The position numbers and the translations under genes are program-made. Under the pieces are notes generated by a model. The model was not told the origin of the DNA, did no database searches, and worked only from the letters and a program-made list of their open reading frames with translations. 64,000 nt of DNA from Escherichia coli O157:H7 (GTDB lineage Bacteria > Pseudomonadota > Gammaproteobacteria > Enterobacterales > Enterobacteriaceae), in NCBI RefSeq assembly GCF_013167455.1, contig NZ_CP038328.1; one strand, given 5' to 3'. Of the stretch, positions 44,371 through 45,196 are shown in pieces. Position 1 is the stretch's first letter. Every line of letters starts with the position of its first letter.

Positions 44371-45093
44371 TTAATCCTGCAACGCATAGGTTACGGTCGT
44401 GACTACGCGTACCGTTTTATTAATCGCCGTAGGATCATCTTCATCACTGCCACTGGCAAAGATCTGGAATACGCCTTGTGAGGCATCGCTAATTGACCCC
44501 ACCTGGCTACCTGAGTCCGTTGCAAATTGTAGTGCGGCGTTGCGTGCATCTTTGGTGGCGGCAGCAATCATCTCAGCGCGCAGTGCGCCAATACCATTAA
44601 AGCGATAGGCGACTTTGCTCTCAGCGATAGCGCCATCCGTAGCGACTTGCAGTTCGTTTAATTTCGCGACGACTTTTTCGACAGCAGCAACATTATGGGT
44701 TTTTATCGTCACTGACCCGTCTGCGTTATAGCGTGGCATTGTGGGATCATCTTTCAGATAAAAGGAATCTGTTCGCTTGCTTGTCCATTGGCCCAGAATT
44801 ATCTCTTTCTCGTTAATCCCCTGAGCATTGAGTTCGGCAACAATTTTTTTCTGCGCTTCTTCCAGTTTCGGGAACAGTTCGCCGGGAACATTACCCTTAA
44901 AGTTAATCGCAATTGTTAATTCCGCCGTATCTGCGCGAACTTCTTTTTCAGAAAGCCCGCGCACATTGACATAACGGTTGTTGGTTTTTAAATGTTTAAC
45001 ACCATCGCCAACAAAATAACCACAGGCGCTAATCCCCAGTCCGAGGACGATAGCGGCAATTAAAGAGGGGGCCTTGTTCACTGATGACTCCAT
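44371..45093 (-). CDS. Hypothetical SIMPL/DUF541-like lipoprotein; gene not remembered at this position in the E. coli K-12 reference gene order
   Basis: Uninterrupted ORF. Candidate starts are ATG at 45093 (MESSVNK...) or GTG at 45081 preceded by GGAG with a 6-nt spacer (MNKAPSLIAAIVLGLGISA-C). Signal peptide with lipobox-like ISAC; N- and C-terminal beta-strand motifs (VNVRGLSEKEVRADTAELTIAINF, KTVRVVTTVTYAL) resemble SIMPL-domain proteins; enteric-like codon usage. ORF track shows a longer 270-aa version from GTG at 45183. Confidence 0.6.
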   Translation of the reverse strand: MESSVNKAPSLIAAIVLGLGISACGYFVGDGVKHLKTNNRYVNVRGLSEKEVRADTAELTIAINFKGNVPGELFPKLEEAQKKIVAELNAQGINEKEIILGQWTSKRTDSFYLKDDPTMPRYNADGSVTIKTHNVAAVEKVVAKLNELQVATDGAIAESKVAYRFNGIGALRAEMIAAATKDARNAALQFATDSGSQVGSISDASQGVFQIFASGSDEDDPTAINKTVRVVTTVTYALQD

Positions 45094-45160
45094 ATCAGAT
45101 GCTAAATGAGCAAGGGAATGTAGTGGAGAGAGGGAGTGAAAGACAGTCCGATTCAGGAGT

Positions 45161-45190
45161 GTGGCCGACAGCATATCGGCCACATTTTTG
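45161..45190. other. Hairpin at the sppA 3' end
   Basis: gtggccga-cagcata-tcggccac then ATTTTTG on the plus strand; overlaps the GTG start of the longest ORF-track version of the extra ORF, which argues that version is too long. Confidence 0.3.
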
Positions 45191-45196
45191 CAGGAT

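Follow-up and report, generated by a model that had tools for sequence, protein, structure and literature searches.

ECs_2473, a SIMPL-domain gene behind sppA in Escherichia coli O157:H7: a probable start codon, a possible lipid anchor and possible read-through transcription

The window, by which we mean the whole 64,000-nucleotide stretch of E. coli O157:H7 DNA that was analysed, carries an extra gene between sppA and ansA. According to the open reading frame list and the RefSeq annotation, the minus-strand order is sppA, ECs_2473, ansA and pncA, preceded by ydjA on the opposite strand, and the 1-kb stretch around the site is 100% identical to many E. coli O157:H7 chromosomes. RefSeq names the extra gene's product a 'SIMPL domain-containing protein' (WP_001030441.1), UniRef names it 'Lipoprotein', and the curated record of the Sakai strain (ECs_2473, NP_310500.3) describes a 'putative lipoprotein' of 236 aa. 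In both the RefSeq/PGAP and the Sakai records the coding sequence is 711 nt long and begins 115 nt past the sppA stop, that is, at GTG 45081; the Sakai gene is identical to that of the window in DNA, protein, start, length and 'putative lipoprotein' call, and we found no difference between them. The name 'putative lipoprotein' is based on prediction only. A search by locus tag found a single published datum for ECs_2473, a microarray measurement (PMC4940412). The coordinates of the features discussed here are collected in Table 1.

Table 1. Features at the sppA-ECs_2473-ansA locus (window coordinates)
Feature	Position	Strand	Basis
sppA, signal peptide peptidase SppA, 618 aa as annotated	45197..47053	-	ORF list; RefSeq CDS of 1857 nt
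sppA stop codon TAA	45199-45197	-	read directly from the sequence
Hairpin just past sppA; contains GTG 45183 and ATG 45174 (unused)	45160..45184	-	folding; comparison with K-12, E. albertii and E. fergusonii
Spacer between sppA and ECs_2473, 115 nt, taken as 5' untranslated leader	45082..45196	-	promoter and Rfam scans without match
ATG 45093, alternative start, 240-aa form; rejected	45091..45093	-	overlaps the Shine-Dalgarno sequence; AAG in E. albertii and E. fergusonii
Shine-Dalgarno sequence GGAG, 6 nt ahead of the start codon	45088..45091	-	sequence; anti-SD duplex
GTG start codon of the SIMPL gene	45079..45081	-	annotation; cross-species comparison
ECs_2473 / WP_001030441.1 CDS, SIMPL domain-containing, putative lipoprotein, 236 aa and stop	44371..45081	-	ORF list, Pfam, annotation, dN/dS
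N-terminal signal or anchor segment, residues 1-20, MNKAPSLIAAIVLGLGISAC	45022..45081	-	PROSITE-type rule; AF2 helix
Lipobox ISAC	45033-45022	-	
Cys20 codon TGT	45024-45022	-	
SIMPL/DUF541 domain, residues 38-232 of 236	44386..44970	-	Pfam PF04402; Foldseek to 7C50
Terminator-like hairpin, 11-bp stem 44361..44328 with 12-nt loop, then ACUUUUCU, upstream of the ansA promoter region	44320..44361	-	

The product belongs to the SIMPL/DUF541 family: Pfam PF04402 matches it with 66.6 bits against a cut-off of 25.2 (E = 4.9e-18), over profile positions 1-205 of 205. Pairwise dN/dS among O157, ST131, W444, E. albertii and E. fergusonii is 0.06-0.15, and this purifying selection argues for a working gene. 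An AF2 model built with 88 homologues (pLDDT 93) has an N-terminal helix at residues 4-33 followed by an alpha/beta domain, whose SIMPL fold Foldseek matches with a probability of 1.00 to both 7C50 (E = 1.6e-16) and Brucella BP26 (4HVZ; E = 7.9e-11). The nearest solved sequence is PDB 10am_A, a 'Periplasmic protein' of 231 aa present in nine chains (phmmer E = 1.6e-27), and the SIMPL-like protein of C. jejuni (7C50/7C51) matches with a phmmer E of 6.4e-26. Both belong to the same subfamily as ECs_2473 and match it over nearly the full length, the Foldseek match to 7C50 having a TM of 0.64/0.77, and in all of these proteins a hydrophobic segment at the N-terminus leads into an alpha/beta SIMPL domain of two lobes. 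Identity to ECs_2473 is only about 30%, however, and the N-terminal segment of the C. jejuni protein is without cysteine, unlike that of ECs_2473. The literature retrieved contained no biochemical function for this subfamily, and the literature searched yielded no paper on the C. jejuni structure or on PDB 10am. Brucella BP26/Omp28 and E. coli YggE have Pfam PF04402, the fold and an exported envelope location in common with ECs_2473, although BP26 is only a distant relative (17% identity). BP26 and YggE are soluble periplasmic proteins with ordinary signal peptides and are not known to carry a lipobox. An identity with YggE itself was considered and rejected, as ECs_2473 scores 18.3 bits against a cut-off of 249 for the oxidative stress defense equivalog (NCBIfam NF008299) and is a distant paralogue.

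An earlier note on this DNA, made from the letters alone, had raised an ambiguity over where translation of this gene begins, and the ambiguity is a real one: the public records hold both a 236-aa form, on at least 1000 contigs, and a 240-aa form starting at ATG 45093, on 216 contigs in GenBank records. The longest open reading frame (270 aa, 45183..44371) opens at GTG 45183, separated from the sppA stop by the 13 nt ATCCTGCAAAAAT (45196-45184, minus strand), and no record of the corresponding protein was present in the sequence collection searched. All of the coordinates in the earlier note (sppA stop, 13-nt interval, GTG 45183, stem, ATG 45093, GGAG and GTG 45081) proved right, although a fourth in-frame candidate, ATG 45174 within the hairpin, was absent from it. 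As had been proposed there, ATG 45093 is without a Shine-Dalgarno sequence (anti-SD duplex energy 0.6 kcal/mol), and GTG 45081 stands behind GGAG with a 6-nt spacer (TCATCA) and yields 236 aa. GTG 45081 is the sole candidate with an anti-SD match. Its duplex energy is -5.9 kcal/mol (only about 5% of random 20-mers from the window reach -6), compared with 1.2 kcal/mol for GTG 45183 and -1.5 kcal/mol for ATG 45174, and the orthologues range from -6.2 to -11.0 kcal/mol.

Comparison across species carries the argument further. In E. albertii and E. fergusonii the gene lies at the same place, between sppA and ansA, and GTG 45081 is the only one of the candidates that both species retain. When their spacers are aligned with that of O157, the motif GATA-GGA-CATCAGTGA is preserved and the GTG does not vary, and the position of ATG 45093 is occupied in both by AAG, which lengthens the Shine-Dalgarno sequence there to AAGGA or AAGGAG. 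The leaders differ by indels that are not multiples of three and break the frame (E. albertii carries an insertion of 4 nt there, E. fergusonii several indels); the in-frame upstream stops of these two species lie 25 and 37 codons from the GTG, with no in-frame ATG, GTG or TTG between stop and GTG in either. Two more distant syntenic orthologues from metagenome assemblies, P0007 (68% identity) and P0010 (about 65%), also lie between the 3' end of sppA and the 5' end of ansA (loci L011 and L013); both have an ATG at the aligned start position, with in-frame stops 1 and 25 codons upstream. The 120 homologues listed are for the most part 236 aa in length; their coverage of the 270-aa query is 84-87%, which places the start of the alignment at the residue encoded by GTG 45081. 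The 236-aa product put forward in the earlier note is thus supported by the RefSeq and Sakai start, by the conserved GTG and the distant ATG, by the homologue alignment and by the anti-SD match, and translation very probably starts at GTG 45081. Under this model, the GGAG 6 nt upstream would direct initiation, and the 102 nt of open frame that hold GTG 45183, ATG 45174 and ATG 45093 would be non-coding leader, its 5' end formed by the sppA 3' hairpin and its frame open in E. coli by chance alone.

Neither of the other possible starts competes well with this reading. A start at ATG 45093, giving the 240-aa protein (MESSVNK...) of some GenBank submissions, would use a codon type commoner than GTG and has its 216 contigs on record. 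However, this ATG itself overlaps the GGAG that serves GTG 45081, has no Shine-Dalgarno sequence of its own and is replaced by AAG in E. albertii and E. fergusonii, and in the distant orthologues stop codons close the frame 1 and 25 codons ahead of the common start. The extra Glu of the longer form would also offset the single positive charge of the n-region, and RefSeq has revised the Sakai protein to 236 aa (NP_310500.3); we therefore regard initiation at ATG 45093 as very improbable. The upstream codons GTG 45183 (270 aa) and ATG 45174 (267 aa) lie close behind the sppA stop, at 13-22 nt, and the frame leading from them is open in all E. coli copies examined. Against their use, both lack a Shine-Dalgarno sequence and lie hidden inside a hairpin of 11 bp and about -18 kcal/mol, and the N-terminal extension that they would add (with the peptide MADMLSATLLNR) is either missing from E. 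albertii and E. fergusonii or out of frame there, is unmatched by any homologue, and would place 34 non-hydrophobic residues ahead of the export signal. The cross-species comparison effectively refutes the longest-ORF start, to which we give almost no credence. Since GTG 45081 is already the current RefSeq call, the earlier note was correct but ordinary on this point, and there is nothing new in the start itself. What our analysis adds to the existing annotation is comparative proof of that start, by which the 240-aa GenBank versions stand as mis-started. The value of this is little beyond annotation hygiene, although the correct mature N-terminus and anchor type are relevant to expressing, localising or raising antibodies to an envelope protein.

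The hairpin at the beginning of the spacer was also described in the earlier note, as a perfect 8-bp stem at 45161..45183, and this description holds: GTGGCCGATATGCTGTCGGCCAC at 45183..45161 forms the stem GTGGCCGA-TATGCTG-TCGGCCAC. RNA folding extends it to 11 pairs (45184..45160) with a 3-nt loop and one G-U pair, at -17.8 to -19.7 kcal/mol (z = -3.9); none of 200 shuffles was as stable, so the structure is more than chance. The further statement that the first eight codons of the longest frame lie within it is right as to the overlap but not as to its extent, which is 7 2/3 codons. As an intrinsic terminator, the O157 hairpin has the stable, G+C-rich stem-loop and is without the U-tract: the stem is followed by ACUCCUGAAU, with three U in 10 nt, and the terminator scan made no call here. 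The sequence TTTTTTTGT is absent behind the O157 sppA hairpin. In K-12, the intrinsic terminator of sppA has an 8-bp stem (GTGGCCGA/TCGGCCAC) identical to that of the O157 hairpin, at a distance of 12 nt from the sppA stop as against 13 nt in O157, with a different loop and with the T-run ATTATTTTTT past the stem where O157, ST131 and E. albertii have ACTCCTGAAT and a common 9-nt gap. A T-run also follows the stem in E. fergusonii (ATTTTTTTG), and at L011 and L013 the interval from sppA to the gene holds a hairpin with a T-run as well. By this comparison, the 45183-45161 hairpin is the stem of the sppA terminator, which in K-12 has the form of a canonical intrinsic terminator. Directly past the hairpin, the block CTCCTGAATCGGACTGTCTTTCAC is conserved in three species. 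RNA folding also predicts pairing of the Shine-Dalgarno sequence and start codon with a CUCC-rich tract at 45138-45123, which we considered as a regulatory element and set aside because conservation of the tract does not extend to E. albertii or E. fergusonii.

Among 5426 complete E. coli genomes, 943 carry the gene. Of the 943 copies, 348 are at least 99% identical to the window, including those of O157:H7 and O145:H28, and 595, including those of ST131, are about 98% identical. The K-12-type junction is found in 4481 of the 5426 genomes at 96.9-100% identity, and the gene is thus a clean presence/absence marker in E. coli. K-12 is without the gene, the missing segment being about 0.8 kb that carries the SIMPL gene, and its sequence past the hairpin is homologous, though diverged, to the O157 region downstream of the gene's stop. 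Because the gene occupies the same site in E. albertii, E. fergusonii and two further enterobacterial lineages, we conclude that it is ancestral and that K-12 has lost it by deletion.

How the gene is transcribed is less clear than where its translation begins. It lies on the same strand as sppA across a 115-nt gap, with a hairpin that lacks a U-tract between them. A sigma-70 promoter scan of the spacer at the standard threshold gave no match, and a relaxed scan of the 300 nt upstream (at least 8 of 12 matches) in five lineages gave none in O157, E. albertii, L011 or L013 and two weak matches in E. fergusonii, 122 and 174 nt upstream of the start; such consensus scans may miss weak or alternative-sigma promoters. 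No sigma-E-like promoter was suggested by eye in the spacer, and an Rfam scan of 44200-45400 at E <= 1 found no match. Past the gene's stop, the 44361..44328 hairpin has a predicted stability of -21.5 kcal/mol (z = -3.5; 0 of 200 shuffles). The absence of a T-run after the first hairpin and of a sigma-70-like promoter, together with the T-run hairpin past the gene, makes co-transcription by read-through plausible. The earlier note had raised co-transcription as a speculation, and we consider read-through the most likely arrangement, with somewhat better than even confidence: in gene-bearing strains, transcription would enter from sppA by reading through the hairpin without a U-tract and would end at the hairpin and U-tract at 44361-44320, possibly with help from an additional weak or non-sigma-70 promoter.

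Several observations stand against such co-transcription. In E. fergusonii, L011 and L013 a T-run hairpin stands behind sppA and ahead of the gene, so expression there would not rest on simple read-through. In a microarray study of the Sakai strain, lettuce cell-wall polysaccharides raised sppA 4.2-fold, ECs2473 11.7-fold and ansA 3.9-fold, whereas spinach root exudate lowered sppA 4.8-fold and ansA 3.7-fold and left ECs2473 unchanged (PMC4940412). The rise of all three genes with lettuce speaks for co-transcription, but the responses of sppA and ECs2473 differ in size, and one condition moves sppA alone of the two. These differences would fit an alternative in which the gene has its own promoter and only an independent transcript, with the hairpin still serving to end or stabilise the sppA mRNA. 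Such an arrangement is also consistent with the hairpin that every lineage examined has in the interval from sppA to the gene, with the solitary position of the gene in distant relatives, and with strain AST85, whose intact copy of the gene is set apart from sppA by an IS200/IS605 element; the persisting T-run hairpins and the conserved block behind the hairpin keep an independent promoter in play. Against it, the scans of the spacer and of the 300 nt upstream detected no sigma-70-like -35/-10 pair in O157, E. albertii, L011 or L013, and the O157 hairpin is without the U-tract needed for intrinsic termination. Furthermore, at L013 the ATG follows the T-run after only about 27 nt, too short a distance for a promoter downstream of the hairpin. 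We regard exclusive transcription from a separate promoter as a serious alternative of clearly less than even probability, and we retain read-through from sppA as the working model.

The nature of the N-terminus is still more evenly balanced. The earlier note had described a textbook lipoprotein signal peptide for the protein begun at GTG 45081. Our lipobox rule was {DERK}(6)-[LIVMFWSTAG](2)-[LIVMFYSTAGCQ]-[AGS]-C, modelled on PROSITE PS51257, and further required a Cys at position 15-35 and a K or R in the first seven residues. From GTG 45081, MNKAPSLIAAIVLGLGISAC passes this rule with Cys20 and with Lys3 in the n-region, and the N-termini of E. coli (MNKAPSLIAAIVLGLGISA followed by C) and E. 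albertii both obey it, with Gly at +2. The segment therefore has the predicted form of a lipoprotein signal, but outside Escherichia only a few homologues have a cysteine at this position. Among the 120 homologues listed, only 7 pass the rule; the residue aligned to Cys20 is A in 25, M in 22, G in 18, S in 9, C in 8, L in 7 and T in 2, and the lipobox cysteine is not conserved among orthologues. In the family as a whole, the N-terminus resembles a membrane helix or a conventional signal peptide. For ECs_2473 itself, we consider a lipoprotein with a periplasmic SIMPL domain the most likely product, at about even odds. The N-terminal 19 residues would then be an export or anchor segment that ends, in E. 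coli and E. albertii, in the lipobox ISA ahead of C20, and lipidation would be plausible but lineage-specific.

The principal alternative to lipidation keeps the GTG 45081 start and treats Cys20 as incidental, the segment being an uncleaved inner-membrane signal anchor or an SPase-I-type signal, as in most homologues. At the Cys20 position, about 110 of 120 homologues carry A, M, G, S or L, Ala being the residue of the syntenic orthologue P0010, and the ITVC of E. fergusonii falls outside the lipobox rule. Immediately after Cys20 comes a conserved motif, G-[YFW]-F-[IV]-G-[DN]-G, whose G21, G25 and G27 show at least 90% conservation. Together with an uncharged stretch of 22 residues and the single helix of the AF2 model over residues 4-33, these features resemble a membrane helix more than the tether of a lipoprotein. 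The full-length 231-aa chain listed in the related PDB entry 10am includes the hydrophobic N-terminus in its nine copies. On the other side, E. coli and E. albertii have every element of the lipobox rule, with the Cys at the typical position 20, and E. coli, E. albertii, E. fergusonii and P0007 have all retained the Cys although their proteins diverge by 14-32%. Lgt, moreover, generally modifies any exported protein that bears an accessible lipobox. We give an unlipidated N-terminal helix a probability just short of even.

Taken together, the evidence is best explained by a model that we hold with good, though not complete, confidence, in which ECs_2473 is an accessory gene, old within the genus, for a 236-aa SIMPL/DUF541 envelope protein, with the start, anchor and transcription described above. 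A bolder proposal, which we put forward only tentatively and consider rather unlikely as a whole, is that this locus has been rewired twice. A single substitution to Cys in the Escherichia lineage would have converted an ancestral N-terminal membrane helix into a lipoprotein signal and, with Gly at +2, exchanged the inner-membrane anchor of the SIMPL domain for a lipid anchor in the outer membrane. Loss of the U-tract in gene-bearing E. coli and E. albertii would have fused the gene into the sppA transcript, and the deletion of about 0.8 kb in K-12-type strains would have joined the hairpin to a T-rich tract to give a canonical sppA terminator.

Finally, the position of the gene behind sppA had led the earlier note to hint at a functional tie to SppA, and our comparison does not support one. 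Four distant homologues on long contigs (P0032, P0047, P0061 and P0116) are solitary genes in unrelated contexts, none of them with a Peptidase_S49 gene nearby, and a functional link through a conserved neighbourhood was rejected on these grounds. Judged from these gene neighbourhoods, the order of sppA, the extra gene and ansA is confined to enterobacteria and is explained by vertical inheritance.

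The E. coli locus shows a clean two-state polymorphism, in which the SIMPL gene (ECs_2473, annotated as a putative lipoprotein) is present in 943 complete genomes and a K-12-type deletion of ~0.8 kb is found in 4481. The left edge of this deletion is the hairpin that follows the sppA stop codon. Because CCAC followed by T-rich sequence is found at both edges (left, GGCCAC|ACTCC; right, TAACCAC|TTTTCT), a deletion joining them would leave the hairpin followed by a T-run. The other ~65 nt are just ~60% identical between the gene-bearing and K-12-type haplotypes.

Strain AST85 provides a natural test of whether the SIMPL gene needs sppA transcription. 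In this strain, an IS200/IS605-family tnpA lies directly upstream of the hairpin, at the site occupied by the 3' end of sppA in other gene-bearing strains, and similarity to the window begins at 45190. The SIMPL gene downstream of tnpA and the hairpin is intact and annotated.

Coordinates of features at the SIMPL locus and its neighbors
Feature	Window	Other locus
Two-state polymorphism region	44340-45200	K-12 (L002), 4692-4860
IS200/IS605-family tnpA of AST85		NZ_AP043644.1 (L004), 1-410
Conserved non-coding block	45160-45137	
CUCC-rich tract	45123-45138	
GGAG Shine-Dalgarno and GTG start codon	45079-45091	
Longest sppA ORF	45197-47197	
ydjE	41015-42478	Sakai (L010), 9061-11629

The leader between the hairpin and the start codon contains two elements of differing conservation. 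Immediately 3' of the hairpin is a 24-nt non-coding block (CTCCTGAATCGGACTGTCTTTCAC) that is ~80–90% conserved across E. coli, E. albertii, and E. fergusonii; neither a promoter nor an Rfam match accounts for its conservation, and the next ~40 nt are unconserved in these species. Farther downstream, the minimum-energy fold pairs a CUCC-rich pyrimidine tract (CACTCCCTCTCTCCAC) with the GGAG Shine-Dalgarno sequence and the GTG start codon. Neither E. albertii nor E. fergusonii conserves this tract, and thus it is probably incidental.

On the expression of the gene, the literature search found a single datum: in strain Sakai, lettuce cell-wall polysaccharides induced ECs2473 11.7-fold (PMC4940412, Table 1 and supplementary file 2). 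A full-length 231-aa homologue, named "Periplasmic protein" and ~35% identical, is present as nine chains in a recent PDB entry (10am_A), for which the search found no paper. The 10am_A chain includes the hydrophobic N-terminus. Should 10am prove to be oligomeric, with its membrane helices resolved, the structure would bear on whether the N-terminus of the SIMPL protein is a membrane anchor or is lipidated at Cys20.

The longest sppA ORF encodes 666 aa from GTG 47197, whereas the annotated protein is 618 aa from ATG 47053 (MRTLWRF...); sppA is another gene over-extended by its longest ORF. In Sakai, ydjE is a pseudogene cut by an IS629/IS1203 insertion, whereas the window ydjE ORF is unbroken, and the window therefore represents an O157-type genome without this insertion.
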